Made by a program: the position numbers and the translations under genes
Notes under the pieces: generated by a model
Told to the model about the DNA's origin: nothing
Seen by the model: only the letters and a program-made list of their open reading frames with translations
Databases searched by the model: none
Part shown: piece after piece, positions 9,601-45,963 of the stretch
How the letters are laid out: each line of letters opens with the position of its first letter
Position numbering within the stretch: the stretch's first letter is position 1
Assembly (NCBI GenBank): GCA_039815185.1
Contig: JBCBZT010000007.1
Coordinates: 149,403-213,402, forward strand
Length of the DNA: 64,000 nucleotides
Source: Cyanobacteria bacterium P01_A01_bin.123
Lineage (GTDB): Bacteria; Cyanobacteriota; Cyanobacteriia; Phormidesmidales; Phormidesmidaceae
Direction: 5' to 3'

Positions 9601-10507
9601 GTTCGAGCAGTGGAACTGCTGTGGCGGGTAACCGACACGCGATCGCGGTTAAAGCTCTGCCTCGGTTCCCGTCATCTTCTATGGTGGGTGCAATTGAGAG
9701 CGCAGCGCTTAATTGCGGCAGATGTGTCGTTTCTGTCAAGTGGTGTATGGTCCCCGTCAGGAGTTCATCCCGGTGCTTTTCATCTGGCAAGGCCCCCACA
9801 GCAGTGATGAGTGGATCTAATAATTGCGGGTCTATTTTCGCCAACTCACTGGCGAAAATAGGGATTTCAAAAGTCTCTAAAAAGTCTCCGCTTGCCAAAG
9901 TCTGCGCTAACGATTCAACCGCTTGCGCCATCTTCTGCGTGCTGGCTGGCTCCGGCAGGCGATGGGCAATGATGGCCAGAATCTGAGCTGGAAACAGACC
10001 ATACTCACCGAATTTCATCGCCTGGGCAGCGATTACCGCTTGTTCTAAGGTTTCTATGTGTTTGAGGTCAGGCAGTTCAGGCGCGATCGCGACTAGGGCT
10101 TGGGCACGAGAGCTTGCTGATTCAATCCCATCGGCCAGACTCAAAGCCTGCGCTAGGGTTTCAGTACGCTTTGGTTCGGGGAGTTGGGGTGCGATCGCGA
10201 TCAGCGCTTTAACCCGCTTAAAGGCATTTTCAATAGACTGGACAGCGGTTAACGCGTGTTCTAAGGCTTGGGTACGTTCTGGGTTAGGCAGACGGGGCGC
10301 GATCGCAAGTAGCTGTTTACCCCGTTCGTCGGCATCGATAATGGCCTGTGCTGCATCCCAGGCTGCTTTTAGCACATCCAAGCGGGACGGTAAGACTTCA
10401 GAAGCGAGTTGAACTAATGCTTCACCCTGCTCAACCGGATCTTGAATGCGCTCGATCTCGTTTAAACGCGCTGCGATCCAATCATCCCTGTTTGCCTGTT
10501 CGCCCAT
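3650..10507 (-). CDS. Giant (2285 aa) protein: N-terminal alpha-helical repeat solenoid plus C-terminal KAP-family P-loop NTPase with two TM helices
   Basis: Many ~38-40 aa repeats like ALTAAQTIQDEQIRADALAAIAPTLP; Walker A GILGGWGGGKS; FDAWTF; TM insert; Walker B IIVYIDDLDRC; YLEKIIQLPY. Confidence 0.88.
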   Translation of the reverse strand: MGEQANRDDWIAARLNEIERIQDPVEQGEALVQLASEVLPSRLDVLKAAWDAAQAIIDADERGKQLLAIAPRLPNPERTQALEHALTAVQSIENAFKRVKALIAIAPQLPEPKRTETLAQALSLADGIESASSRAQALVAIAPELPDLKHIETLEQAVIAAQAMKFGEYGLFPAQILAIIAHRLPEPASTQKMAQAVESLAQTLASGDFLETFEIPIFASELAKIDPQLLDPLITAVGALPDEKHRDELLTGTIHHLTETTHLPQLSAALSIAPTIEDDGNRGRALTAIACRLPATAVPLLEQLLAAAHHVHDQQTRSVLLAEIATRFTAAKHPPALEQALSIANSIQEDTIRADVLIAIALHSIETAPRILEQILNIAAAIQDDSICAQMLMAIVPHLPTTATPLLDQALTAARTIQDPERRGYALLGLPNLPEEERFQALDQILTTVYAVQSELPRTQALAAVAPHLPATERFQAFEQALTAITQTRAGDVYDANCALYEIIPKLPHTEPQLFQRALHVAQDLSQTIENDWYCHNILITLLCHLSETASQLLEQALAAVVQALSDKSHRAEVLAKLLPQLPPAIHLRTLEYVIQALEQLVGAEQGDYDQQSCAETLATIAPYLPATVPQLFRRALDIAQTIQNGKYRAATLTAIAPYFPDPAERLSVLERILTVVRVMTDQQAWARTLAAITPHLPPTECNQALQEALAMGRAMDNPTDQGYTLLAIAPYFPEPERLQVLAEILSVAPNIRDENQRGGLLQRLGLAGLLAQPAPQSPDTELQLLETILQIASAIRNEQYRATVLQAIAPYLPPNTPHLLEAALTAAQTIQDEQIRADALAAIAPTLPATELSEASEQPLSAASIVQDEKQRVESLMAIALQLPETPSDKAWTEAFNAARSLTDDSARFDALVKIAPQLPNPADQAWTEALDATAAIPEPINRVHALMRIAPHLPEPQCLIIIKQALAELQTIPNEQQLPYALKDIAPHLTIAAVTDQQAAALALVPHLPQDTDKTWLLSELAPKLSIGLMPNALRLIETAFSRDRDKVETLCNLLPYLPTDQLPDTLNLIVQSIPAPYPRTEALESLIPLLSINTLTDALSLIEVYQEVSGENSTLTESIQTSSPFETVAASAAIADSPKLETIKLPMLQTRILSSIATALASQTAQDSAPKAPTDVITKLATQIATVTPHLKAYPQPEFAYDKAAAEIFSRLAPAFTYLEIPQRQIFFEAVQQFQDPAYQAQVLSAVARIGSTDLLVQVNQCLASFNGDDYRTWLNIKVRTASLSSFDRPTLAQLLSQIQSPHRKAEALVEIASHPSGHAYQPAALRQIRGLGNHDLEVRCLKRLIPRLHHNQRLEAANVIREIGELYFRTTALVALACKFPEFRSEAKTSAQQLSNLVQSVEQLSTLAIEMPEILPEVTDIAATVEQPLARGKTLVALSPHLPMRINREVTREHRLGQPITIELWQRALYLMARGYRDALKGGSLRNESAQDEDLLNLKDEVNALTDLLLMRDLEPPMTVGILGGWGGGKSYIMHLMQSRMTEIRSRPIHPDTEAWNLDPNHERLSPYVGHVYQIKFDAWTFAKSDLWASLMQTIFLELNRQISLEQKLARVLAEQPNNAESRAKVLCAAGQYWPVLYKSGDEDRQWFLERVLSPEQLAQFQDINNQEEVDNALWQQLGETYQAENQKLKELEAELKRKQAALQQETQAIRSKIDNDQFYQLINKLTGPISILLSNRVSKTVFEQINQEITRKIKAQLDSDAASETLEPIDTNHLKAMIRLVTADVMERRYGQIDFFSFWTWCRKNVRLLGLVLILMVLAIVLPIAVEQTLAWLDVSIDSFSSRLIAFLAPLTPGIVSVQALFKSFHQWFEETKLAVKEYEIQIGAISQQLEKRREEIFQNQLDEVEAISELETEIKVLEDKIDTQRQRIPENVYESLEAFVSDRLQAGSYEKHLGLMQQVKGDLADLSQRLLPPPAASQAFRSKVEQLQKIFPRGPARIIVYIDDLDRCPPDRVVAVLEAVQLLVKTPLFIAVLAIDERYITRALEQFYKGILLRHGSPSGTDYLEKIIQLPYRVRPIMANTLETYLRSQVVIQDNATGSAKFNEFSRQEFNMLLECCKQTDLSPRTLKRLINIYKLFKIVCRTRGTKPSPQVQQAILALLALSGHYPDLMRGIFDDIENCYEEQRTQAEAEKSGQKLHLESPLQDCFKHYRPPGDRYLRREFDHLKHDALQTTILPPALTLEGMTHEIFNLLRSFSFVGDIGEDPEDYRVSDAVEAISK

Positions 10508-14134: not shown

Positions 14135-14536
14135 TTAAGAGACATCATTGCCCAAGGCGATCGCGATCTTGGGAAAGTGATTCAGCAGCTTTTTATCAGC
14201 TGTCACAAGTGAGGTTTTCAACTGGATTGCCAGCGCGATGAATTCACAATCATACGCAGAACAATGACTGTTCTCGACGAGACGCAGCACATCAAAGGAA
14301 GCCACTTCAAATTCGCGATCGGATAATAGCATTTCCGCTTCTGATTGGATGGCATAGGCTTGATCAAAAGTTAATAGACGCTTGCGAATATAAAGTGCTA
14401 ACACATTGCGGAGTTCACTTCGCCAGAGGAGCGGGGCCGCCCACTCAGGATGTTTGACTAAAAGACGCTCTGCATCGACAGTTTGATTGGTCGGCAGATA
14501 AAGATAAGCGACAACATTGGTATCGACGACAATCAT
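14135..14536 (-). CDS. vapC: VapC-family PIN-domain toxin
   Basis: IVVDTNV, SAYDCEFIALA, LVTADKKL; overlaps the antitoxin stop codon. Confidence 0.9.
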   Translation of the reverse strand: MIVVDTNVVAYLYLPTNQTVDAERLLVKHPEWAAPLLWRSELRNVLALYIRKRLLTFDQAYAIQSEAEMLLSDREFEVASFDVLRLVENSHCSAYDCEFIALAIQLKTSLVTADKKLLNHFPKIAIALGNDVS

Positions 14537-14778
14537 GGGCGACCCTGCTCAATCGCATCGATAATGTCCTCAGGTTTAAACTTTCCAGATGGTAAAGGGC
14601 TTCTGAGTTGGCGGGCACGGGTAAGTCGCTCTTCACCCGTAACTCGCGCAGACAGTAGTGTCCTTTCTAAGCAAGCAATCACCTCGCTATTAATACTGCG
14701 GTGATTGGCTTGGGCAGCTACTTTGAGACGGGCATAAATCTCGTCAGGTATATTCTTGAGCGTAATCGTAATTGTCAT
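14533..14778 (-). CDS. Arc/FitA-like ribbon-helix-helix antitoxin
   Basis: ITLKNIPDEIYARLKVAAQANHRSINSE; coupled to vapC. Confidence 0.85.
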   Translation of the reverse strand: MTITITLKNIPDEIYARLKVAAQANHRSINSEVIACLERTLLSARVTGEERLTRARQLRSPLPSGKFKPEDIIDAIEQGRP

Positions 14779-14875
14779 ATAGCCACCAAAATGGTTCCAT
14801 AACGAAACCATTTTGGTGGACTAAAACGCAGTTGTCAATCAAGGGATTTGGCAACTCTGTCACCCGTTTAAAGGG

Positions 14876-27204: not shown

Positions 27205-28146
27205 ATGGTCACTATTAAGTCTCTAACCCCTGAACAGGAAGCACTCATTCCAATCTATTGCAGCAAGTGGCGATCGCTGATCACGTCTACTGAGCGTCTA
27301 AATCGATCCCGCGTAGAAGGAAGCTTGAGAGCCGCCTATCTGCTGGCGGAAAAACCTGAACCCGAGTTTCGCTTCCTCAATGGGCCTAACGAGCTTAAGC
27401 AGTTGCGAGAACAGCAATCGGCTTTAGCGTTTATCCGTCAGTTTGGTGCACCCGTATCTCTACTTGACACTCAAGTGGTCAAGCGCATCCGCAGTAGGCT
27501 TGATGATGCCTTAAAACAACACATCGAAACTCAACTGTTAGACAATCTTCAACTGCAATCTTCAATTTATTCGTTGGCTACCCATCCTTTTGCTGACCTA
27601 GCTGCCCAAGCGGTTCGAGAAGGGTTTGAAACTGCTGGTGCTAGGGGCCGAGATGATCTCAGGAATCAGTTGGGTGGGGAATTCTTGCTGACAATGAGTG
27701 ACACTGTTCAACAAATGACAGAGGCAGTTTTCCAGACAGTAAACGCAACGATACAACAAGTCTCAGCAAGTCAACCTTTCATGCAGCCTATAACCCAATG
27801 GCAGGAAAGACTACAGGTTACGGGTCAGGCTTTATCAACTGCAGCGACCCTTGCTGGGGTCTTCAATATGGTTGCAGCTATGCAATACAGCTATCTCGAT
27901 TTCTACTCATCCATTCTGGACTTTTCTGATTCTGACCAGAAACATCTGGCCACCATCCGTTCTATCTTTCGGGCCTGTAGCGCATTAGTCATTCCGTTTG
28001 AGACGCTTTGTCTTGTCATCGAACGACCGACAAAAATTTCCTTGGATGCAGAGGGAAAACTCCATGCTGATCATGAACCAGCACTCGTTTTTGCTGATGG
28101 CGCAGAATTTTATATCCACCATGGTGAGTGCATCACACCTGATTAA
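27205..28146 (+). CDS. DUF6745-like hypothetical protein
   Basis: N-terminal LTPEQEALIPIY..KW and C-terminal ERPTKISLDAEGKLHADHEPALVFADG...HG. Confidence 0.7.
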   Translation: MVTIKSLTPEQEALIPIYCSKWRSLITSTERLNRSRVEGSLRAAYLLAEKPEPEFRFLNGPNELKQLREQQSALAFIRQFGAPVSLLDTQVVKRIRSRLDDALKQHIETQLLDNLQLQSSIYSLATHPFADLAAQAVREGFETAGARGRDDLRNQLGGEFLLTMSDTVQQMTEAVFQTVNATIQQVSASQPFMQPITQWQERLQVTGQALSTAATLAGVFNMVAAMQYSYLDFYSSILDFSDSDQKHLATIRSIFRACSALVIPFETLCLVIERPTKISLDAEGKLHADHEPALVFADGAEFYIHHGECITPD

Positions 28147-28231
28147 TGGATAGATATCAGGTGCATTTTTATTGTTTTGATCAATTTAATTCTCCAAGTG
28201 CGATCGCTCTCTATCTACATGTATTATTCAC

Positions 28232-28630
28232 CTATCTAACGCTAGCCACTGCCTCAACCTCAACAAGTATTGAGGGTGATGCGAGGGAAGCTACGCCGAT
28301 ACCTGTTACAGATGGACGAGATTCGCCTAAAAAGTTAGAGAGAATAGGGGCAACAGCTTCCATGTATTCTCCGAGTTCACCTCGGATATAGACACGAACT
28401 TGCAATAGCTGTTCAACTGATGAACCAGCTGCTGTTAGGGCAATTTTAAGATTTTCAAGTGCCTTTCTCATTTGTCCTTCGACCGAGTTTTCTGTGGTCT
28501 CATATTGATGATTCCAATCGACCTGACCAGATACAAAAACTAGCCCCAAGTCCGTCTCAACAGTAGCCTGAGACATGCCAAATGCAGCACCATCGTACAG
28601 TTCCTCTGGGTTGATTCGTTTTTTGCTCAT
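28232..28630 (-). CDS. RidA/YjgF family protein
   Basis: VFVSGQV, ALENLKIALTAAGS, RPSVTGIGVASL...LVEVEAVA. Confidence 0.9.
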   Translation of the reverse strand: MSKKRINPEELYDGAAFGMSQATVETDLGLVFVSGQVDWNHQYETTENSVEGQMRKALENLKIALTAAGSSVEQLLQVRVYIRGELGEYMEAVAPILSNFLGESRPSVTGIGVASLASPSILVEVEAVASVR

Positions 28631-28669
28631 GTTGTCCTCCCACGTGAATTTTAGAAACAGCGATCTTCC

Positions 28670-28994
28670 TTATGATTTTTTGTCTGAGTTAAGCGCCCGC
28701 AAGACAAAAGCATTAACTGAGTATGAATCAGTATTTGTGGGTGCGCATAGCTTTAACTCATTGAGTATACTCACAAAGCTAGTCTCTGCGATGATTTCAT
28801 TGGTTTCTAATGATCTGACATAAATCCTATGGCTGGTTATACCCAATGATTTAGGGAGATCCTCCGCCAAATTTTCAGACCTGACTTCAAGATTTGCCTC
28901 AAGTTCATCGATTGGGATACGCTCGCCACGTTTGTCTGGATTTATTCGGACGTAGGGAAGTTCGGTTTTATTTTAGAGATTTGTAGAAAAGCAT
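28670..28994 (-). pseudogene. Possible frameshifted small hypothetical gene
   Basis: Open frame extends about 100 codons to a TAA near 28975; the nearest ATG (28994) is one base out of frame across an A-rich tract. Confidence 0.3.
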
Positions 28995-29019
28995 GAATTT
29001 TTAGACGCCTAGTATCTCA

Positions 29020-29529
29020 CTACCAGAAGAATTTTCGAGATTCTAAAGTCCCTGCTAATATTTTGGCTGCATCTCGAATTGCACGTTGACAACGCCAGTG
29101 TCCATCAGTTGCACATGATGAATTCAACTCTTTATGAACCAGAAGGGCTTCTGCTTCTCCTATCCTGACAGCAGCCTGGAATAGTAAGAACAGTGCCTCA
29201 CTGCGAGAAGAAAGTGGCGTGACATTTTGAGCCTGTCTTGTAGCAGTATTCAATATCTTTTTTGCCTTTGAGAGGATATTACGTTCAGATAACGCCGCAA
29301 TTTCCCAGGCCCTAACGGCACAGCATTTGTATGCATCATTACATGCGTTTGCAGATTTCTCAATAAGTGAAGCAATCAAATCCAGATCGGCATCTGTGAA
29401 CCTGAGGATCCAGGCTAAGGCTTGCGCTCTGAACCATGGATCACTAATTTTGCGAGCCCCTTCAAGAGCTTTCTTGGGATTACTTTTTGCAAGACTAGCT
29501 ATTTTGTCTCTAGCAAGCGTATCATTCAT
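29020..29529 (-). CDS. Hypothetical alpha-helical repeat protein
   Basis: ATG overlaps the upstream stop (ATGAATGA); ALEGARKISDPWFRAQALA-type repeats. Confidence 0.7.
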   Translation of the reverse strand: MNDTLARDKIASLAKSNPKKALEGARKISDPWFRAQALAWILRFTDADLDLIASLIEKSANACNDAYKCCAVRAWEIAALSERNILSKAKKILNTATRQAQNVTPLSSRSEALFLLFQAAVRIGEAEALLVHKELNSSCATDGHWRCQRAIRDAAKILAGTLESRKFFW

Positions 29530-29950
29530 CACTACTAAGTTTACGCCAGGCTTTGTGATATCTTTCAAGGCGTTCTAAATCTTTTTCTTTCAACTCCGGA
29601 ATTCTACGGATATTCATGTTGTCCTTTAAATCCGCTAACTTAACTTCACTTGCGATTCTATTGTTTTGGATTCGTTCAATATAGGCTTCGTAAGTCTCTC
29701 TATCACGATGTGTTAGACAATCTAGTGCTTCAATCACTGCAGGTGGAAACCCTTCTGCTTCTAAATCTTCTAGTGTCCATTGTGTATCCTCTACAACATC
29801 ATGAAGCACTGCCGACATTCTTGCTTCATCTGATGTCACTGATAGCATCAGCGTTAACGGATGAAGTACATAGGGCAAACCGTTTTTTTGGCGTTGCCCT
29901 TTATGTGCCTCAACGGCTATTTCTAAGGCTCGCTGTAGATCTGCCATCAT
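29522..29950 (-). CDS. Stand-alone HD-domain (p)ppGpp hydrolase-like protein (small alarmone hydrolase / Mesh1-like)
   Basis: AHKGQRQKNGLPYVLHP, AVLHDVVEDT, VKLADLKDN. Confidence 0.85.
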   Translation of the reverse strand: MMADLQRALEIAVEAHKGQRQKNGLPYVLHPLTLMLSVTSDEARMSAVLHDVVEDTQWTLEDLEAEGFPPAVIEALDCLTHRDRETYEAYIERIQNNRIASEVKLADLKDNMNIRRIPELKEKDLERLERYHKAWRKLSSDE

Positions 29951-30294
29951 TTCTTCTCGACTCTCTGAGTGTAATGATGCGTTGTGACGCATTCTATAAT
30001 ATCGGGCGATCGCACCTTTTTCCTTATCTCATTTACTAGCAACCGTAGTAGGAAATCCCACCTTTAATCCTTAACAAGTGGTTGCAATTTGACGTTAATT
30101 TATAAGTGCGATTGCGCTACAAAGATAAGAATATAATTAGCGTGCTAATGTTTTCGTTGGATTATACTATCGCCTTTCTTGCATACCTTTGGGCTATATC
30201 CAATCTACGAAGTGAGCGAAGCACTGAGGCAGTTAGAAGGTGCTTCGGTCACGCCTGTATGCCACATGAATCCAATTGCTGAAGTTTCGAGTCC

Positions 30295-30870
30295 TCATCG
30301 TGCGGCGAGGAATTCTAGTACCCGCTGCATCAATAGAGCGGATGCATTTGCATCGTACGACGGCAGTGAGCTGTCTGCAAAGATGTGCTGTTCGCCGGGG
30401 TAGAGGAACATTTCTGCGTCTTCCGCTTCTTCAACCAGCGACCGAGCGGCATCAATGTCCCCTTCACCAACAAAGAATGGATCGGCATCCTTAGCATGCA
30501 CCTGTACAGGCACCCCTTTCGGCCAGGCCGAGCTAAACTCCGAGACTGGCACGCAGGCATAGAAGAGAAGCGCGCCCCGCGCGCCGACGCGGGTCTGGGC
30601 CAGTTTCTGTGACGGAACTACGCCTAGAGAAAAACCAGCGTAGACCAACTCAGCGGGCAACCCGGCCACGGCTTGCTCTCCGCGCTCAATCACCTCGCCA
30701 AAGCCAAGTTCCTCAACGAATCTCATACCCGTCTCCAGGTCATCGAAGGTGCGACCATCGAAGAGATCGGGCATGTGGACGAGGTGCCCGCTGCAACGAA
30801 GCCTTTCAGCAAACGTAGCGATGCCAGGGGTCAGGCCTTGCGCGTGGTGGAATAATATGACCTCTGCCAA
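30295..30870 (-). CDS. Dienelactone hydrolase-family alpha/beta hydrolase
   Basis: LFHHAQGLT, PDLFDG, YAGFSLG, DPFF, YPGEQHIFAD; TTG start after GGAGGG RBS. Confidence 0.85.
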   Translation of the reverse strand: MAEVILFHHAQGLTPGIATFAERLRCSGHLVHMPDLFDGRTFDDLETGMRFVEELGFGEVIERGEQAVAGLPAELVYAGFSLGVVPSQKLAQTRVGARGALLFYACVPVSEFSSAWPKGVPVQVHAKDADPFFVGEGDIDAARSLVEEAEDAEMFLYPGEQHIFADSSLPSYDANASALLMQRVLEFLAAR

Positions 30871-30952
30871 TATCAACCCTCCTGCTCGCGAACCGCCAAT
30901 ATAGCTAATACCTCTTCTAAGCTAATACCTTCTAGCGGCAATGGAATTGCGC

Positions 30953-31231
30953 TTAAGGGGCCGAAGACAGGTCAATGCTAGCGGACGAAAGCAGCGGTTC
31001 GCCTTCAAAGTAGCTGTCTGAGTCTGCAAAGGATGTGATCACCACCAGTGCTTCATCGCTTGGCAGCGCATCTGCATCAAAGTAGTCAAACTCAAAACGG
31101 CACCGGCCGGTGCCGGAGCAGCCCAATACTTCTGTGTAGCCCCTGTCGTACATCTTTTGCTCCAGGGGTGTGTGGTGATCCATTGAGACGTCCTTTGCGA
31201 CCCAGCCCGTATCCATCAGCCGCGATCGCAC
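30953..31231 (-). pseudogene. 5'-truncated fragment of a hypothetical gene
   Basis: Coding-like (EVLGCSGTGRCRFEF), but the frame begins exactly at the HIP1 hairpin with no RBS or leader. Confidence 0.5.
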
Positions 31232-31293
31232 TTTGACGTTAATTTATAAGTGCGATCGCCAGAATCATACAGGTTAGCTGAGCAAGCGCAGAA

Positions 31294-32784
31294 TTAACGA
31301 GGTTGGAGCCAGCCTGGAAGCAAACCGTAGGGATCGAGACGAACTTGACTGTTGAAGGCAACGTGATGCTCCTCTAATAGCGTCTGTAATTCTCCACTCT
31401 TAAAGGCATCAAAAGTTTCCGTACAACCCCCAATGAACTTCCCACCTACAAAAATTTGGGGAATAGTTTTGCAACCCGTTTTGGCGTTCAATGCAGCCCT
31501 GATTTTGCCACCCCAACCATCGGCTTGATACTCCACAGAATCCAAATTAACTGAGCGATACTCAATGCCACATTTGGCAAACAGCTTGCGAATCGACCAA
31601 CAAAACTCACACCATTGCAAGGCAAACATGATAACAGGCTGTTCTGGCTCATTGATTACAGCCTGCACAAACGCTTCAGCCTCAGGAATTACAACAGGTG
31701 GCTCAACTGCCGTTGGAGCCGATTTTGCAGGGGGTGGCGCATCAAAGCGACAACTGGGTGTTGACTTCGAGATAGCAAGTTCTGCTGCGGTCATCTCTTC
31801 TGGGATTTCTGCAAAAAGTGGTGTGGTGAGATAACGTTCACCCGTGTCAGGGAGCATGCAAAGCACCGTCGAACCTTGGGGTGCTTGTGCACAAACTTGC
31901 AAGGCACCGGCTAATGTTGCACCACCGGAGATGCCTGTAAAAATTCCCTCCTTTTGGGCCAATTCTTGGGAAAGACGCAGCGCATCTGCCCCATTGATGG
32001 GCATGAACTGGTCAATATGGTGGGCCCTCATGACATCTTCCGCCAATTGAGGAATAAAGTCGGGTGTCCAACCTTGCATCAGGTGGGGGCGGAAATTGGG
32101 ATGACTTTCGTGGATGCTGCCATTTTCACTGCGCTTCTGAGGCAGACCACTTGCCATTAATTGTGAATTGTCTGGTTCGCAAACAACAACCTGGGTTTCC
32201 GGTCGCTCTGCTTTAAGAACCCTGGCAGTCCCTTTGAGTGTGCCCCCTGTGCCAAAACCTGTTACCCAGTAATCGAGCGGTTGATCCCGAAAATCATCCA
32301 AAATTTCAGGGGCGGTTGTGCGGGAATGGATATCGGCATTGGCCTCATTCTCAAACTGGCGACAAAGAAACCAACCGTGGGTTTCAGCCAGCTCAATGGC
32401 TTTGTTAAGCATGCCCATCGCTTTTTGAGAAGCGGGTGTTAGAACAACTTTAGCCCCCAAGAAACGCATGATTTTACGGCGTTCGATGCTGCAGTTTTCT
32501 GCCATAACCACAACCAGGGGGTAGCCTTTCTGTGCACAGACCATTGCTAAACCAATGCCTGTATTACCGCTAGTCGCTTCAATAACGGTTTGTCCGGGGG
32601 ATAAACTTCCGTCTCGTTCCGCGGCTTCTATAACGCCCAGTGCTAAGCGATCTTTAACGGATCCCATAGGATTAAATGCTTCAGCTTTGATATACAAGTT
32701 AATACCTTCTGGAGCCAACTTATTGAGTTTGATAACTGGAGTACGGCCAATTGTTTCAAGGATATTGTTGTAAAGCTTGCCCAT
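31294..32784 (-). CDS. cysK: Cysteine synthase (PLP) fused to a C-terminal glutaredoxin domain
   Basis: NPMGSVKDR, EATSGNTGIGLA, GFGTGGT, GISGGA, PDTGERYL; then WCEFC and TIPQIFVGGKFIGGC. Confidence 0.9.
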   Translation of the reverse strand: MGKLYNNILETIGRTPVIKLNKLAPEGINLYIKAEAFNPMGSVKDRLALGVIEAAERDGSLSPGQTVIEATSGNTGIGLAMVCAQKGYPLVVVMAENCSIERRKIMRFLGAKVVLTPASQKAMGMLNKAIELAETHGWFLCRQFENEANADIHSRTTAPEILDDFRDQPLDYWVTGFGTGGTLKGTARVLKAERPETQVVVCEPDNSQLMASGLPQKRSENGSIHESHPNFRPHLMQGWTPDFIPQLAEDVMRAHHIDQFMPINGADALRLSQELAQKEGIFTGISGGATLAGALQVCAQAPQGSTVLCMLPDTGERYLTTPLFAEIPEEMTAAELAISKSTPSCRFDAPPPAKSAPTAVEPPVVIPEAEAFVQAVINEPEQPVIMFALQWCEFCWSIRKLFAKCGIEYRSVNLDSVEYQADGWGGKIRAALNAKTGCKTIPQIFVGGKFIGGCTETFDAFKSGELQTLLEEHHVAFNSQVRLDPYGLLPGWLQPR

Positions 32785-35814: not shown

Positions 35815-36486
35815 CTAAATGGAGTAATTTGGCTGACGCAGCATGGGGAAAATCTGAGGTGATTTCCCGGCTTGAATTGTGCCGATAACTTCGAAGCCGT
35901 GATGTTGGTAAAACGGGATATTCTCGGGATTAGACGATTCCAGATAGGCGGGGAGGCGATCGCGATCGCACTTATCCAGCACTGCATGCAACAGCACCGA
36001 ACCCAGTCCCTGGCTTTGATGTCTGGGATCTACCCCCAGCAATGGTAAGTACCAGTGGGGATAGTGAGGATGGTAGTGATCCATCTGTTCAAAAACCGCA
36101 AACGCATCGGGTTGATCGGCTTCGAACAAACACCCTTGCAGCAGTTCTTCGACGACCTCGGAGTCGGGTTCAATACCGGGGGAAAACCAGAGTGCCCCTC
36201 CGGTATTGTCTCCACTCACATAGGCAGTACCTTGCTCAAAGGCTTTACCAGCGAATGCGATCACAAACTGTGGGAAATAGGTCAGGTACTGGTGAGGATC
36301 CGGAAATAGCCATCGCACGGCTGGGTCGTTGCTAAAGGCTAGTACCAGAGATGGAATCACATATTTATGTTCTGTGACGCTGGCAACTCTGGATGCAGCC
36401 AAGGATCGGTTAAGTTCAGGTGGGCTTAACGGTGACGTCAAGATTCCTCCACCGGTGTCGCTTGTGATCAGTTGGGAATGCAGCAT
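35815..36486 (-). CDS. GNAT acetyltransferase (puromycin N-acetyltransferase-like)
   Basis: AFSNDP, HWYLPLLGVDPRHQSQGLGS, AYLESSNPENIPFYQHHGF. Confidence 0.88.
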   Translation of the reverse strand: MLHSQLITSDTGGGILTSPLSPPELNRSLAASRVASVTEHKYVIPSLVLAFSNDPAVRWLFPDPHQYLTYFPQFVIAFAGKAFEQGTAYVSGDNTGGALWFSPGIEPDSEVVEELLQGCLFEADQPDAFAVFEQMDHYHPHYPHWYLPLLGVDPRHQSQGLGSVLLHAVLDKCDRDRLPAYLESSNPENIPFYQHHGFEVIGTIQAGKSPQIFPMLRQPNYSI

Positions 36487-36588: not shown

Positions 36589-36674
36589 AGCTAACGTTCC
36601 AAATCAGCAGTAGCAGAGAAATTGAAACGAAACAGGAGGCGTTGCAATTGCCCGCTGTATTTGGGTTGTTATGC
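36589..36674 (-). mobile_element. Integron attC recombination site (86 bp)
   Basis: Minus strand: R'' GCATAAC, L'' CCAAATACAGCGG ... L' CTGCTGATTTGG, R' GTTAGCT; 4 nt after the toxin stop codon. Confidence 0.8.
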
Positions 36675-36678
36675 CGCA

Positions 36679-36939
36679 CTATAGCTTGCCAATCAACTTG
36701 TCATACTCTGCATGTGTTCCAATCCAAAACCAAGAGATTCCATTTTTGACCTCTACACCTAGGGCCCGGTACCTCAAACCTGCGCGAACTGACCAGTACC
36801 GTTTGCCCAACTTCTTGAAATGTAACGATGGGTGGGACGGGTCAACCTTGAGTAATTCGTAGCACTCATCAGCTGTTCGTTGAATATCTTTGGGCAGAGT
36901 GTTGTAGCATTGCCAAAATCTCTGGGTTGTATAGTGCAT
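36679..36939 (-). CDS. RelE/ParE-superfamily toxin
   Basis: HPSLHFKK, YWSVRAGLRYRALG, WFWIGTHAEYDKL; TGATG overlap with the antitoxin. Confidence 0.85.
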   Translation of the reverse strand: MHYTTQRFWQCYNTLPKDIQRTADECYELLKVDPSHPSLHFKKLGKRYWSVRAGLRYRALGVEVKNGISWFWIGTHAEYDKLIGKL

Positions 36940-37139
36940 CAGATTTCTTGGCACTGACCCGCTTCAAACTCGGCGATCGCCTCTTGAGCAAACGCCTCTA
37001 ATTTACCCTCGTCAATATCTTGCTCTATCTGCTTATCCCAGCGTTCGTAGTCTAAATCAAGGAACCACGACCTTAGTTTCTCAAATTCATTGATTGGTAA
37101 GGAAAGAATTGCTGATTCGATTTGCTCAAGGTTGGACAT
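36939..37139 (-). CDS. Cognate acidic antitoxin
   Basis: LEQIESAILSLP...WDKQIEQDIDEGKLEAFAQEAIAEFEAG; TATAAT at 37175-37170 upstream. Confidence 0.8.
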   Translation of the reverse strand: MSNLEQIESAILSLPINEFEKLRSWFLDLDYERWDKQIEQDIDEGKLEAFAQEAIAEFEAGQCQEI

Positions 37140-37280
37140 GGCCGCTCATACCTCTCTAACCTCAAGAGAATTATAGCTTCACCAGGAAGGAGCCTACAGC
37201 CAGGACCTGTTGACCCTTGTACAGCACACCTCTTGACCACTGACAGATGAACTCATGGCTGCGCCTCAACCAAGAACTAA

Positions 37281-37440
37281 GCGGCATAACAATCCTATTA
37301 GACAGACAGTTTCTGTATATCTACCATGCTGGTAAGGATATACAGAGAGGATCGGCACATCTATCCCGACGGTGAAGAGTGCAAGAAACTTTCTGCATAT
37401 TATTCCTCTCAGGATTGATCGAAAGAAACTTTCTGCATAT
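37281..37440 (-). repeat. attI-like simple site plus three copies of a palindromic AGAAA-N-TTTCTGYATAT motif
   Basis: Minus strand GTCTAAT-aggatt-GTTATGC; AAGAAACTTTCTGCATAT identical at 37383-37400 and 37423-37440; degenerate CAGACAGTTTCTGTATAT at 37303-37320. Confidence 0.6.
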
Positions 37441-37454
37441 GTAGCCGAACCCAC

Positions 37455-37982
37455 TCATGGCTTAATCACCATCGCCGACCAACCCCGGTCAAAAGGAACG
37501 TTTAACCGCCGATAGGTTTCGCGAATGACTTCGGCATCAGGGGCATTGATTTCACAGATGACACGGGTGCGATCACTAGACACATAAGACTGTACCCACT
37601 CCACCCCCCGCTCAGCATGACAGGGCAGCACTCGGCGGTTCGTTTCATCCCACTGTTTCCAGGTAAATCCTTGAGGATAGGTGTGCTCAAACACTTTCAA
37701 ACCCTTTTCATTGGGAGTTGATGGGGGGGCTTCAGGCATGACAATCTCACCCGACCACATGCGGCTAAAGGCGGTGCCGCCCCGACGAAAGGATTCACGA
37801 ACAGACTCGGTGTCGGGCGCTTCGAAGGTACAAATCATCCGGTGACGCTCGCTTGAGAGCAGGGTATAGAGCCATTGGCAGTTGCGTTCGGCGAGGCACT
37901 CCTCGGTTCGGAGAACGACCTCATTTGGGATTTCCGGATAAAGGGGCGTATCCGATTGGGTTTCAACTACAACAAAGGGCAT
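37455..37982 (-). CDS. DUF4242 (SCO4226-like) protein with two tandem domains
   Basis: Repeated W..(T/S)..SS.R.R.IC...APD.E..RE..RR....F.R.WS. Confidence 0.8.
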   Translation of the reverse strand: MPFVVVETQSDTPLYPEIPNEVVLRTEECLAERNCQWLYTLLSSERHRMICTFEAPDTESVRESFRRGGTAFSRMWSGEIVMPEAPPSTPNEKGLKVFEHTYPQGFTWKQWDETNRRVLPCHAERGVEWVQSYVSSDRTRVICEINAPDAEVIRETYRRLNVPFDRGWSAMVIKP

Positions 37983-38016
37983 AGGAATCTCGAGTTTTGG
38001 ACGATTGGGAGCTGGT

Positions 38017-41000
38017 TTAGGGAACTGGATGAGCTGGAATTGATAGTATTTGCTGAGCTTCGGCGATCGCAGTTTGGGCAGTGGCACTAACATTGTGGAA
38101 ATCTGCCGTTTCTTGTAGCTGCTGAAATTCGGCCAGCGCTTGCTCAGGGTCGCCTAGCTTGAGCAAGCTTTGAACGAGAACAGCCCAACTCAAGGCAATT
38201 TGGCTGGGATGGTTGATCGCACGCGCATTGTTTAGCGCGGCCGTGGCGCGTTCATAGGCTAGCGGTAGGTTCGCGTCTGCCAAATCGATTGCAGCGGCAC
38301 GCATCAGGATGGAGGCTAGCACCCGTTTGGCGTCGGCTCGCTGTAAGGCGGCGATCGCAGCAGGTAAGGTTTCGGCAGCGGCAGGTTCTCGAAGCTGATA
38401 TTGCGCTAGGGCAGTCAGCGCTTGGGCAATGGCTGCCTCGCTCCCTTCCCCCTGAATTTTTGCTGCGGCCTCTAGCATGGCTGCCATGTGGGGAAAGACG
38501 GCGGCTGGGTTTTCGGTCTCTAGCTCAATCATGGCGAGATAGCTCAAGTAGTGACACTCCCGCCAGTGTTCTTGGTGGACATGGGTCAGGTGCAGGGCTT
38601 GGCTAATCAGCGATCGCGCTTCGTCATAACGACCATAGTGCCGATGGATAGCCCCCAATCCGGCGAAGATATCAAAATTTTCCAGATCGACCCGCTCTGC
38701 TAAAGACTGGGCTTCGAGTAACAGTGCCTCTGCTCGGGGGATATCGCGCCCAATTTCAGCCAGACAGCCTCCGCTGTAGGCCAGGGTTCGAGCTACCACC
38801 GCTGGGTTTGCTACGCGACTCGCTGCCGCTGCCTGGAGTGAATAGCGATGCACACCGTCAAAGTCACTTTGGTTAAACTGCACGATAATTAGGGCTTCCA
38901 GGGCGTTGGTCTCCGCCTCGGGAAGCTGCTGGGCCTGGGCATCTTCCACCAACTGCTGGGCTTGGGTCGTCAATTGCGCGGCGGTTTCCCCCTGAACCCC
39001 GGCAAGCGCACAGAGGTTCAGCAACTTAGCCTGCCGGGTGATGCGTATCCGGTGGCCGAGTTGCTCAGCCGCTCGAAAGCCTTGACGAGCGTGCTCCACA
39101 GCGGCGGTATAGGCAAACAGTTTGAGGGATTGCTCTACCGCCAAGATTGCCATTTCAGCAGCCAGATCAAAGTCTTCCCCTAAAAAAGCATGGTGGGCAA
39201 CGTCACTGGCAATCGCTTCATCCTGGTTGACTTGTTGGTATAAGTGGTAGGCAATCTGCTGGTGAATCAGTCGCCGCCGGGGCGCTGAAAGCTGTTTGTA
39301 CACAACCTGACGCACGATGCCGTGGGTAAAGTCGTAACAGCCGCCTAGCTGTCTGGCGGCGTTGGGGCAGATAATGCTTTGCTGCTCCAGTTGTTCAATT
39401 GCGCTCAACAGCTGAGCGATAGGCATGTCAGCAATCTGGGCTATCATCGCCGGGGAAAAATTCCGCCCCATCGCCGCGGCCCAGGGCAAAATCCCGCGAG
39501 TGCTGTCGTCCAACTGCTGTAGGCGATCGCCAATCAGCGATTCCAGGGTGCTAGCATCTCCAGATTGATATCCCCGCGATCGCGCCAATTCCAATGCGAA
39601 TAGGGGATTGCCGCCACTATCCACAAACACTTGATTAATTAGCGAAAGAGACAGTTCGGAGGGCACTAAACTTCCCGTACTCCGTAATAAATGACGTGTT
39701 TGCTCCCGATCTAGTGGGGATAGTTCAAGGCAATGTAATCGCTGTTCTCGCCGCAGGGCTTTCAAGACATCGGTGATGGCGGCATTAGCCTCCAATTCGC
39801 CCGACCGAGCTGTACAGGCAATCTGCATTGGGTGGTGGTGCAACACCCGAATCACGTAGTGGAGCAGTGCTGCCGACGCATCATCCATCCACTGAATGTC
39901 GTCGAAGAGCAGCAACAGCGGAGATTGGTCGGCCCATTGTAATAGTGATCGCACCACCGCATCAAATAGATGACTGGGGTCGGGTAAGGTTTGGGATGGA
40001 TGCCCCAATTCCGGCATTAGAAACCCTAATTCAGTCGGTAAATTTGGGATAGATACAATGTCGCTAGACCGCAGTGCATCGATCCACATACCGTAGGGAC
40101 GCATCATCTCCGCAGCAAATCCGCAGCCCCAAAGCAACCGCACGTCAGCTGTTTGCAACTTAGTGTATAACTCTTCCAGTAGCCGGGTTTTCCCAATTCC
40201 GGGTTCCCCTTGCAGTAACAGCATGGGTGTAGCTCTGGTCTTGCCCTGAGAAGGTTTTGCAGACTGCTGGGTACCTGTCAGGAGTGGCTCTCCCCACTGT
40301 TGGATGGTGTCCCACTCTGCTTCCCGGCCCACCAGAGGTGTACTCGCCATCGAAGGATTAAGCGTAACAACCGGTAGCGCTACGGGTTGAGGCGTAGATG
40401 GGGGTTGAGTCGGTGTGAGCAGGGCTTCGTCTTCGTGCAGCAATTGCTCATAGAGCTGTCGTGTCGCTGCCCCTGGATCCACGCCTAACTCATCTTGCAG
40501 GATGGTCATGCACTGGTGATAGGTCTGGAGGGCACCTGCGCGATCGCCCACCCCATGCTGCAGTCGCATGAGGGTGCAATAGACCGCCTCATTGAGATTA
40601 TCCAGGCGGACTAACTGTTGAGCATAGGTGTTAGCAGTGGAGTAATCCTGTTGGTTTTCTAGGAGCTGTATTAGCTGCTCCAGCGATCGCTGATAAAGCT
40701 GCCGTAATCGTTCCCGCTCTGGGGTCAGCCATTCGTCCTCACAATCCGGTAAGAGATCGCCCTGATAAAGCTGAATTGCTTGTTCCCAGTGGGTTTGACG
40801 AACCACATTATCCGTTGATTGCTCGGCGGTATTGATGGCTGCTTCGAACGCTGCGACATCTGACTGACAGTCCTCACTTGACAACCAATGCAGCGATTTC
40901 GTGCCGGTTTTCAACAGCGTTTCCACATTCGGCAGCGATCGCCGCAAATGGCTTAAGGCTTTCCTCAGGTTGGTTCGCGCCTGGGCGTCAGTAGACTCAG

Positions 41001-41484: not shown

Positions 41485-41636
41485 CTACAAAGGCATGGCA
41501 GCAGTCAATTAAAAATATTGATGGGTATTGTCTTACATAAGGTCAGTGTGTTGCCCAGCCTAAGGCCCTATATTGGTGGTGGATGGTGTCTGCTCTGCGA
41601 GATCCAATGATCAAGCTTTATTAGGATTAGGTTTCT

Positions 41637-42179
41637 ATGATGAGTACCCAGCTATCTGATACTTTGGGAAGATTACAAGCCAGAATCTATTGGCTACATG
41701 ATGCAGAAAAGTTTGATGAGTTAGCCAGTACTGCAAGCAAAATCTACCAGCTTTTAGGGCATCCTGAATCATTAAGCGATCAAGTGGGTAGCTTTATCTC
41801 TGAGGCTTATCGAATATCTGATGATGCTCAGATCGCAAGATTTGCCGATGATCCACAAAAGGAATTAAAGCACTATGCTGAGGTTCAGATTCAATTAGAG
41901 GAAGTAGTGAAACTACTAAATTTGCCTATTGAGATAGCAGCGTATCAAGTTCAATGGTGGATGCTTTCTAGACACAAGAAAATCTTTGCAGCCATAGGCT
42001 ATATCCTTAAGCAACATGATCAATTATCAGTTTTGGCTAAGGCTAAGCTAGCTTATTACTCGTTTCAAATAGGTTTAGGCCATAATCAGAGAAAATTAGC
42101 TAAGTGTGAGAAGTATGCAATCTATTATTGGGATCTACTTCTACAATCAAAAGAGGCTCTTTATCCCTATATTGGTTGA
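41637..42179 (+). CDS. Hypothetical protein (AT-rich, opposite orientation to neighbours)
   Basis: 180-aa ATG ORF, no recognisable motif. Confidence 0.65.
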   Translation: MMSTQLSDTLGRLQARIYWLHDAEKFDELASTASKIYQLLGHPESLSDQVGSFISEAYRISDDAQIARFADDPQKELKHYAEVQIQLEEVVKLLNLPIEIAAYQVQWWMLSRHKKIFAAIGYILKQHDQLSVLAKAKLAYYSFQIGLGHNQRKLAKCEKYAIYYWDLLLQSKEALYPYIG

Positions 42180-42203
42180 TGGCTTAATGAGAATCAAAAA
42201 GAG

Positions 42204-42287
42204 GCATAACGGCAGAGTTAAGCGACAACAAGTAATGCTGAAACGAATCGCAAAGACTCTGTTTGTCGCGCTAATACTGTTTTATGC
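42204..42287 (-). mobile_element. Second attC site, degenerate R'' (84 bp)
   Basis: Minus strand GCATAAA...TTAGCGCGACAA ... TTGTCGCTTAA...GTTATGC; overlaps the GNAT stop codon; shares TGAAACGAA at the same offset as the first attC. Confidence 0.65.
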
Positions 42288-42791
42288 TGTGGCATCTAAT
42301 CGATAGATATCCATCTCAACGCCATAGAATATTGTTGCTATTTCGTATCTCATGCCTACCCTTTAAAGTACCCTGACGAATGCTATGTTTGCTCGCTCCA
42401 CAATTCCAAGGATATATAGAAACCTAAGTTTATTAAATCCATATTGAATTGTTGCTGACGCCGCTTCAGTAGCTAGTTCCAGATTCCAAAACTTGGGATC
42501 TAATCGATAGCCAAGCTGTCGCTCATCTACGTCATAAACTTGCTCTACTGCGATTCCACAATAGCCAATCAATTCGTTGGTTTCCTTGAAAATAACAGCC
42601 CACTTTCCAAATCCAGATTTTTTGTGTAAAGCAATAAAATCGTCTATCTTCACTTGTGTTTGTGAAGTCGATAGAATTCCAGCAGGAGAGAATTCCATGA
42701 CTTTTAGATTTACAAGAATTGGTGCAAGTTGATGGACATTTTGCTGCTGAAAGTCTCTCAGAATTAAATGTTTTGTTTCTAACCAAACCAT
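42282..42791 (-). pseudogene. RimJ/RimL GNAT with premature TAA at 42363-42365
   Basis: Frame continues after VRVL* as RVGMRYE...LDATA* (family pattern VLEKxGM). Confidence 0.8.
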
Positions 42792-42800
42792 AATTAAAAA

Positions 42801-43448
42801 TTAGCTGTGGTTCAGTTCCATCAAGGAAAGTTTCTCCCCAGAGTAAAGCCACTTCTCAAAATTTACTTTACAGCGCTTCCATTCTTTATCTGTCATTGCG
42901 AACCAATCTGTATCTCGACTTTTGCCACGCACAAGCATATGCTGGCGAAATCGACCCTCATAAATAAACCCCATTCTGGTAGCTGTGGTTCGACTCGCGT
43001 GGTTTAGAGCATCACATTTCCACTCAACTCAACGATAAGCCTGTTGTTCGAACAGATACTGGAGCAGCAAAAACTGAGATTCGGTATTGACTTTGCTTTT
43101 ATGAACATTGGGAGTAAACCAGACATGACCAATTTCCGCACGTCCGTGATTCGGCGCGATCGCCAGTAATGCCACAACTCCAACCTGAGTATTTGTTGAG
43201 TTCTCGAAAACTGTCCAAGTCAACGGATCAGATTTACCAATCATCTCCTTTTCCATCCAATCTTTCATTGCGGAAAGATTATTAAATGGACCATAAAATA
43301 AGTAACTCCAAACAGCTTCCTTTTCATGACTTCCGTGTGATGCGGCGTACAGAGCTGCCACATCCCTGTTTGGAATAAGGGGTTTGAGGGTTACATATTG
43401 GCCACTAATTTGAAGCAGTTCAGGTGATTGCCAAGTTCGCTGCTGCAT
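42801..43448 (-). pseudogene. RimJ/RimL GNAT with premature TGA at 43029-43031
   Basis: AYR*VEWKCDALNHAS...RMGFIYEGRFRQHMLVRGKSRDTDWF continues in frame (family YRRxEWKCD; CGA to TGA). Confidence 0.88.
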
Positions 43449-43698
43449 AATTTATCAATGCCTCGCCAATCGATAATTTTACTCTTGCCAGAAACTTCAT
43501 GAACAAACATTAACCGAGCCTGAACAAGCAGCTTGAAAACTGCTGCCTTAAGGGAAGTCAAGTAGTATACCAGTAAAGGTAAGCGGCGTTAACTATCTTG
43601 ACAAAGAAGCCTTATCAATAACGTTTACCAGATTATGTGATCATTACTAATATTACTAAGCGCGATAGCATTCGTAATTTAGTAGCAAGAAAAAAAGT

Positions 43699-44801: not shown

Positions 44802-45963
44802 CTATCGCCTTGTGGTAGAAAAATTCTCAAACCAGCCTTTGCGCCAAAAGTAAACAATTAGTCCGCCCGTGATCGCAATCATCAATGCCCAACAGAGGGG
44901 ATAGCCCCAATACCAGTTCAGTTCTGGCATATTCCAGGGAGAACTTTGGGGATTAAAATTCATGCCGTAAAGGCCAGCAATAAACGTTAGCGGAATGAAA
45001 ATGGTCGAAATCACAGTCAACAGCTTCATGACCTCATTCATCCGGTTGCTGACGGAGGACAAATACACATCCATCAAACTAGAGGCCAGTTCTCGGTAAG
45101 TTTCTAAAATGTCGAGAATCTGAATCACGTGGTCATAGCAGTCTTGAAAATAGATCCGAACTTCTGGACTGACGCAGTTGCTGGTGTCGCGGATCAAGCT
45201 ATTAATGGCACTCCGCTGGGGCCAAATGGCGCGACGCATGGCCATTAATTCTCGCCGTAGATCGTGAATCTTTTCGATGGTTTTACGGGTGGGATTTGCC
45301 ACCACTTCATCTTCTAGGGCTTCGATATATTCACCATATTCTTCTAACACTGGGAAAAAGCCGTCAATCACTGAATCAATCAGGGCATAGGCTAAATAAT
45401 CTGCTCCTTGAGTCCGAATAGTGTGGCCCCAAGATAAAGCTGACCTGTTCATTAAAAAATCCCCGCCCCTTGGATTTGAGCATCACCATCCGCATGATGA
45501 TCAGCAAATGATCCTGAAATTGTTCGACCTTGGGACGCTGGGGCACATTGACCACATCTTCTAACACCAGCGGATGGAGCTTAAAAATATCCCCCAAGCT
45601 GCGCATTACAGGTTCACTGCCCAACCCCTGCACATCCAACCAAGATACAGACTCGGTATCGAGGTAGGAGACACAATCCTGGGGCAAGGCCAATTCGACT
45701 CGAACCGCCGTGTCGGCACCGTAGTCGATCAGCACCAGTTCGGGTACCGGGGCATCGTCTTCAATGGTCAGCGTGCCGGGGGTGCTGCCCTGCTGATCAT
45801 AGTGATAGTCGAAATAATCATCGTCATCTTCAACTGCTCCATCTGGGGCGGGAAGGGTTGCAAAGGTCGGAAACGGGAAGGGAGGAATCTCGCTGTTATA
45901 GCTCCCTGGGGACGAGCTTTGTCGATCGCGCCCCTGCTTAAAACGAGACTCTGGGTTACCCAT
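44802..45963 (-). pseudogene. corA: Magnesium/cobalt transporter CorA, split by an internal deletion/frameshift
   Basis: N-half (HPLVLEDVVNVPQRPKVE...EQVSFILGPHY) and C-half (TIRTQGADYL...IFIPLTFIAGLYGMNF) are in different frames. Confidence 0.88.

Follow-up and report, generated by a model that had tools for sequence, protein, structure and literature searches.

A toxin-antitoxin gene cassette behind an orphan attI in a cyanobacterial genome, a likely remnant of an integron platform

Gene cassettes without an integron integrase nearby have been described as SALINs and CALINs. As far as the available text of the reports goes, SALINs have been explained by attG insertion (10.1101/2022.09.11.507474; PMC9229058), and CALINs have been described together with a possible origin by intI loss and with mobilisation from elsewhere (PMC4889954; 10.1101/2025.06.18.660453; PMC8618304). 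Cury et al. (2016), in the portions of their text at hand, named intI loss as one origin of CALINs, added that an integrase elsewhere may mobilise cassettes of this kind, and noted that for most integrons the attI is not known and is not searchable (PMC4889954). The origin of integrase-less cassettes is open because attI sites could not be searched for. Toxin-antitoxin (TA) cassettes with their own promoters are already known from partially available accounts (PMC8876359; 10.1101/2022.08.03.502626), IntI has been reported to be strictly specific for its attI (PMC2095811), and cyanobacterial integrons are mentioned in passing in the text available from three papers (PMC4889954; 10.1101/2022.02.06.479319; PMC8618304).

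A TA cassette with both of its attachment sites

We analyzed a 64-kb stretch of cyanobacterial DNA (hereafter, the window), which holds a single cassette between two host genes. The features discussed below are as follows.

35815..36486, minus strand: downstream host gene, a GNAT acetyltransferase; not a cassette, as no attC follows it
36589..36674, minus strand: attC, 86 bp, with R'' from the cassette and R' completed by downstream sequence
36595..37289, minus strand: integron gene cassette, 695 bp, the sole and first cassette after attI; seen with attC junctions in other genomes
36679..36939, minus strand: gene for an 86-aa RelE/ParE-superfamily toxin
36939..37139, minus strand: 66-aa ORF, predicted antitoxin, its stop codon overlapping the toxin start
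37170..37175, minus strand: conserved TATAAT hexamer, predicted to be the -10 box of a promoter that belongs to the cassette
37251..37260 (inner copy) and 37453-37462 (outer copy), no strand: 10-bp direct repeat
37288..37445, minus strand: orphan attI module, four related boxes plus core; left edge approximate
37429-37440, 37389-37400, 37349-37360 and 37309-37320, minus strand: attI boxes 1-4, at an exact 40-bp spacing
37288-37303, minus strand: attI core CTAA-N7-GTT, crossover G/TT at 37290/37289
37455..38093, minus strand: upstream host gene with two SCO4226-like domains, outside the element

A covariance-model search for attC, a check proposed in the first-pass annotation, matched the 86-bp site with 49.1 bits (E 9e-10), the only match at E ≤ 1 in the window. 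The model was trained on 16 other attC sites of the same genome with the window site held out, although the PWM scan by which those training sites were put forward had counted the window site among its 10 seeds. Covariation in the training alignment exceeded that of 500 of 500 shuffles, although the sites had been chosen for pairing. The site has paired L''/L' and R''/R' arms and one extrahelical base, and its free folding energy by itself is unremarkable (z -1.5). An initial attC heuristic, which gave 31 candidates versus 43 in the reversed-genome control, was dropped in favor of the PWM scan and then the covariance model. BLASTN with the attC found no paralogue, as divergent attC sites would lead one to expect, and an Rfam scan of 28-44 kb returned two weak leader matches, neither on the element.

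On the minus strand, the crossover G/TT falls between the G at 37290 and position 37289, and the cassette extends from 37289 to the G at 36595. Base for base (10 of 10), GTTATGCCGC at the junction (37281-37290) matches the reverse complement of the R'' flank that the cassette itself carries (36668-36677). Counting both strands, the 8.09-Mb genome has 16 occurrences of this 10-mer (∼0.001 per kb per strand, or about once per Mb per strand). The R' now present, GTTAGCT (36589-36595), differs from the R'' complement carried at the cassette start. The first-pass annotation had pointed to exactly this pairing, and to a 695-bp unit with TATAAT, TA genes and an 86-bp attC; the coordinates, the covariance model and the toxin fold bear out that description. 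Its view that IntI integrated the unit as a TA cassette is probably correct as well, given the attC match, the junction signature and the attC-flanked copies in other genomes. Of 30 homologous loci, a count that excludes our own locus and one contig-cut locus, 21 have the TATAAT at the equivalent position. A sigma-70 scan called no promoter at this hexamer (37170-37175), nor did it call any minus-strand sigma-70 consensus for a Pc promoter.

The toxin scored above the cut-off for Pfam ParE_like (PF24732, E 8e-8), and its predicted structure (pLDDT 92) matched YoeB/RelE structures in Foldseek (TM 0.67-0.72); the query sequence included one extra upstream codon. A single-sequence fold reached a pLDDT of just 51, and sequence searches of the PDB with the toxin gave no match. 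The 66-aa ORF has 279 homologues, those with names being hypothetical cyanobacterial proteins, and matched no Pfam family. It is labeled a putative antitoxin partner of the RelE/ParE toxin because of its gene order, its overlap with the toxin start and its co-conservation. A RelE-type TA cassette is in itself ordinary. A second TA pair, with a FitA-like RHH antitoxin and a PIN toxin and without attC, is located at 14135-14811.

Homologues of the cassette DNA were found in 52 of 401 genomes of the class (E ≤ 1e-20, own genome counted). Six of 31 homologous loci adjoin attC matches (L024, L160, L161, L168, L177 and L183; those of L024 are weak, ∼18 bits), and at three of them (L024, L160 and L183) the homology begins at the GTT after a foreign attC. 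We thus take the cassette to be mobile, a unit that appears in different arrays with GTT junctions. The other 25 of the 31 loci have no abutting attC match, so the TA pair is not always a cassette; one of these (L163, in G349) has the TA pair behind an attI-like module, and the rest appear to be free-standing TA pairs. At L163, attI-like modules lie on either side of the same TA pair, in place of attC. Elsewhere, a TA homologue sits within a train of small TA-like gene pairs without attC (L025:1-3448, in G023), and the repeated spacer between the pairs holds two GCGATCGC (HIP1) motifs; such a train might be a non-integron way to array TA modules.

The DNA before the crossover proved most informative. 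The ∼160 bp of the window module are 73% identical to a second locus, on contig C19, which has two cassettes downstream and where homology likewise ends at GTT, as it does with the other copies. The module also aligns with DNA upstream of the single intact integron integrase gene of the genome, on contig C36 (TIGR02249, 476 bits), and its closest relatives lie 224-228 bp upstream of, and head-to-head with, intact intI in two other genomes (G040:C66 and G010:C842). By homology and position, therefore, we assign these 160 bp to attI and not to host DNA. The first-pass annotation had taken the sequence for a chromosomal empty site; with the sequence reassigned, the cassette entered a canonical docking site. 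The term integron-like understated the case, as the parts are ordinary integron parts.

attI modules and integrases in this genome and its relatives

A first attI profile built from three seed copies matched two more copies clearly and others weakly. The later profile of 14 copies, whose seeds match by construction, found five further partial copies, with a reversed-genome control peaking at E 0.28. The genome (an assembly of 133 contigs with 6% contamination) thus has at least 14 full attI modules, one intact intI on another contig (C36) and several intI remnants. Downstream of nine of the 14 full modules the contig continues for more than 2.2 kb, and each of the nine is followed by a same-strand attC match (one weak, 25.5 bits); the other five end at contig ends. 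Within 1.5 kb, tblastn placed the intact intI at one of the 14 modules, intI pieces with differing deletions at five, and none at eight, including that of the window; intI decay beside attI is therefore common in this genome. The earlier claim that no tyrosine recombinase is encoded in the 64 kb held up in a domain scan of 51 ORFs, which found none, and in a six-frame PF00589 search, none of whose 11 genome-wide matches lies inside the window. Its proposal of dispersed integron loci with intI elsewhere agrees with the genome search, which gave the C36 gene and scattered loci.

The ORFs of the window include one of 2285 aa (3650-10507) with a KAP P-loop NTPase as its sole recognized domain and a CorA-like transporter split over two overlapping ORFs, possibly frameshifted (44802-45963). 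Short unrelated ORFs at 28000-31300 and 41600-43500 (HD domain, dienelactone hydrolase and GNATs) look acquired and have no attC match.

Among 41 related genomes, 33 had attI profile matches and 22 had a full-length intI above the cut-off, with our own genome in both counts. Two near-complete assemblies (G014 and G003) hold attI-like modules and 47 and 7 attC matches, respectively, with no full-length intI in the assemblies, which indicates that orphan attI sites survive as relics as well. Three 98%-identical attI copies in G004 (L041, L046 and L048) each have a different first cassette, and the 5' ends of their intI are cut at about codon 30, at codon 52 and beyond 206. In G039 (L124:4930-5324, L212, L213, L214, L218 and L105), solo attI share a ∼400-bp segment with DNA just past the intI of the intact integron. 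This segment, which has no match in the genome of the window, suggests a larger mobile unit, copies of which lost intI.

Arrival, loading and erosion of the element

In two distant relatives, Tumidithrix helvetica (L114) and G034, the genes for a BTAD regulator, the SCO4226-like protein and the GNAT protein are contiguous without module or TA pair; of the 109 bp that follow attC, most align with this native intergenic region. The insert therefore consists of attI plus the cassette, about 860 bp. The G034 alignment was too divergent to map breakpoints. A search for a clean empty site or an empty attI among the relatives' contigs, the metagenome scans and the runs examined found none; the genome contigs gave six distant loci (44-63% protein identity), and the metagenome scans gave no such site and 24 distant GNAT loci. 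A 26-bp match between the downstream flank and contig C48 was rejected as chance because C48 has no attC or cassette context there.

Contigs from four metagenome runs (X2, X5, X6 and X10) were compared, of which those of X10 lie outside the element. X2 has the full structure. In X6 (∼96% identical), one contig joins 37250 to 37453 and so lacks the 202 bp between the direct repeats (attI together with the initial 40 bp of cassette sequence); the TA genes and attC are kept. As the 5' end of the cassette is conserved in other genomes, X6 most likely represents the derived state. The suggestion in the first-pass annotation that the TA pair stabilizes the island is half right: the TA genes were kept while this related strain lost attI, and there is no island beyond the ∼860 bp. 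In X5 (∼97% identical), a contig from the GNAT side reaches the same GTTAGCT and then continues into a different attC-like arm, and a second contig has different DNA after the SCO4226-like stop, with 30 letters visible in each case. No excised circle or clean excision joint was present in the contigs of the four runs.

We consider the element to be a first-position TA cassette behind attI, likely the remnant of an integron platform that lay between host genes and lost its intI (probability of about three in four). The module census is best explained by integrons that arrived repeatedly and whose intI then decayed. Because the upstream 160 bp correspond to attI and the genome has 14 modules, one intact intI and several remnants, we class the element as an attI-retaining SALIN and not as an off-target insertion. 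No intI remnant was detected at the window locus, where the host gene stop lies ∼15-20 bp from the first box, so the loss of intI in place is read from the sister loci. In the proposed course of events, an integron platform would have landed between the SCO4226-like and GNAT genes and then lost intI; some IntI would have taken the TA cassette out of another array and recombined its attC, as a folded bottom strand, with the double-stranded attI at G/TT. The cassette would be expressed from its own promoter, and the toxin would penalize loss of the TA pair, so that the TA genes would persist while the platform erodes. In a more tentative step, attI might have stayed exchangeable for some time after the loss of intI, by means of an integrase acting in trans.

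This last step is best approached through the relatives. G031 consists of one contig with one intI match, and its four intI-less attI copies, 99% identical to the intI-linked copy (one with a short insertion), have a common left flank and four different first cassettes, a pattern that points to loading in trans; the simplest reading is that the cassettes were loaded after the attI copies were made. In G039, which has one intI, the first cassette at the intI-linked attI, which is of another type, recurs (77-90% identical) behind two solo sites that have a window-like core. In our own genome, a 98%-identical cassette start lies behind two attI of different types (C68 and C121). The comparison with relatives suggests that an integrase encoded at another place can likely still reload orphan docks of this kind. 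The window attI shares 68% identity with that of G040:C66 and 59% with that of C36; the integrases at those two loci are 66% identical to each other, and the IntI clade that goes with the window type of attI (G040:C66 and G010:C842) is 66-69% identical to the C36 enzyme, which leaves trans service for the window site unproven. The description of the system as trans-acting has support from the relatives and is more tentative for the window site, where the type of attI goes with another IntI clade.

A reading compatible with the remnant of a platform is that the C36 IntI loads and unloads cassettes here and at other orphan attI in trans. The first cassettes of G031 and G039, the start shared by C68 and C121, and the different attC-like arm of X5 all favor it; they are weighed against the reported strict specificity of integrases for their own attI (PMC2095811) and the 59% identity between the window and C36 attI. 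The cassette differences could also date from a time when the cognate intI was present, and in an assembly this fragmented and contaminated that gene may be unassembled, or some of the modules may come from another strain. We therefore hold this reading only tentatively, at less than even odds. A correlation between IntI and attI divergence (Spearman 0.46, 14 of 2000 permutations, for 11 of 23 intact integrases) was given no weight, as three of the 11 attI ends were mis-picked and the kin are non-independent.

Alternatively, attI may have come without intI, if IntI, recombining at a secondary site that lay upstream of some attI, freed a small attI piece that was re-inserted at a GTT. Consistent with such an event, the locus shows no intI trace and its left margin is very short, all four G031 solo copies have as their left edge an opposite-strand G/TT followed by a cassette-like start, and the three nearly identical G004 copies carry intI truncated to different extents. 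The two sharp breakpoints in G004 fall at sequences other than GTT, the internal intI deletions at several loci fit decay in place, and the left edge at the window locus is unmappable because no close intact donor was found; we regard arrival as a bare attI as doubtful. The generalization that every solo attI module has its break at GTT was discarded, since both of the sharp G004 breakpoints depart from it and G024 is ambiguous, with G031 fitting. The G031 solo attI (L219, L220, L221 and L223) are double-headed, with a leftward cassette-like stretch and other cassettes rightward; at two of these loci, the leftward stretch ends in an attC match ∼1.35 kb away.

If a lone cassette had inserted off target at a chromosomal GWT (attG), a single attC with no intI nearby would be accounted for, and the available text of one report describes experimental demonstration of this route (10.1101/2022.09.11.507474); as the 160 bp before the crossover are an attI homologue that relatives lack in their syntenic intergenic region, such an insertion is very improbable here. 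An ordinary TA pair that stands alone and happens to have a hairpin after it, which the modest folding z-score and the many TA homologues that are not cassettes might suggest, is refuted by the covariance-model E value, the 10-bp junction match, the upstream attI and the attC-flanked copies elsewhere.

Comparison with known integron systems

What appears to be new is the dispersed multi-attI organization, which has good comparative support. Our literature search, outside which most subscription papers and the supplements lay (supplements may annotate such sites), found no account of multi-copy orphan attI or of this four-box attI. A searchable cyanobacterial attI profile shows an integrase-less cassette at a real attI, and these genomes contain several times more attI sites than intI genes. 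Many cyanobacteria might possess a distributed integron, in which one integrase serves copied intI-less docks that are loaded separately and in which the window dock is reachable by an integrase of another type; we offer this as a conjecture, with the odds somewhat against it. If it is true, a share of SALINs and small CALINs would be working satellite platforms, not off-target insertions or dead remnants. Loading of orphan attI in trans and the strictness of IntI-attI specificity among co-resident integron types are now directly testable.

The locus resembles SALINs and CALINs in having a single attC cassette and no intI nearby, and a detector based on attC and intI would call it a SALIN. In a CALIN there are two attC sites or more without intI, and the window has one. 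It differs from SALINs in keeping a full attI directly upstream; the isolated cassettes of Loot et al., in the text available, have by definition no other att site nearby and are explained by attG insertion (10.1101/2022.09.11.507474). With a complete chromosomal integron, the locus shares an attI core with G/TT, assigned to the head of the array by homology, a correctly oriented first-position cassette, and attC R and L boxes with an extrahelical base; it differs in having no intI adjacent to attI, just one cassette, and 14 platforms per genome. Four boxes at even spacing span the 160 bp of this attI, whereas attI1, as presented in the accessible part of one account, has two direct repeats beside the core (10.1101/2022.02.06.479319). 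Delta-attI-type cassettes of class 1 integrons, according to the available text, likewise have attI sequence away from its canonical place, and used there, but they are attI fragments that serve as cassette ends in mobile arrays, whereas the window has a whole platform of a kind dispersed over the chromosome (PMC12901181). The TA cassettes of sedentary chromosomal integrons, insofar as the accessible text describes them, likewise contain two ORFs, a promoter of their own (a predicted one in the window cassette), an attC and a RelE/ParE-type toxin (PMC8876359; 10.1101/2022.08.03.502626); the window cassette differs from those described there in that its partner ORF belongs to no Pfam antitoxin family and in that it is solitary, with no array to stabilize.
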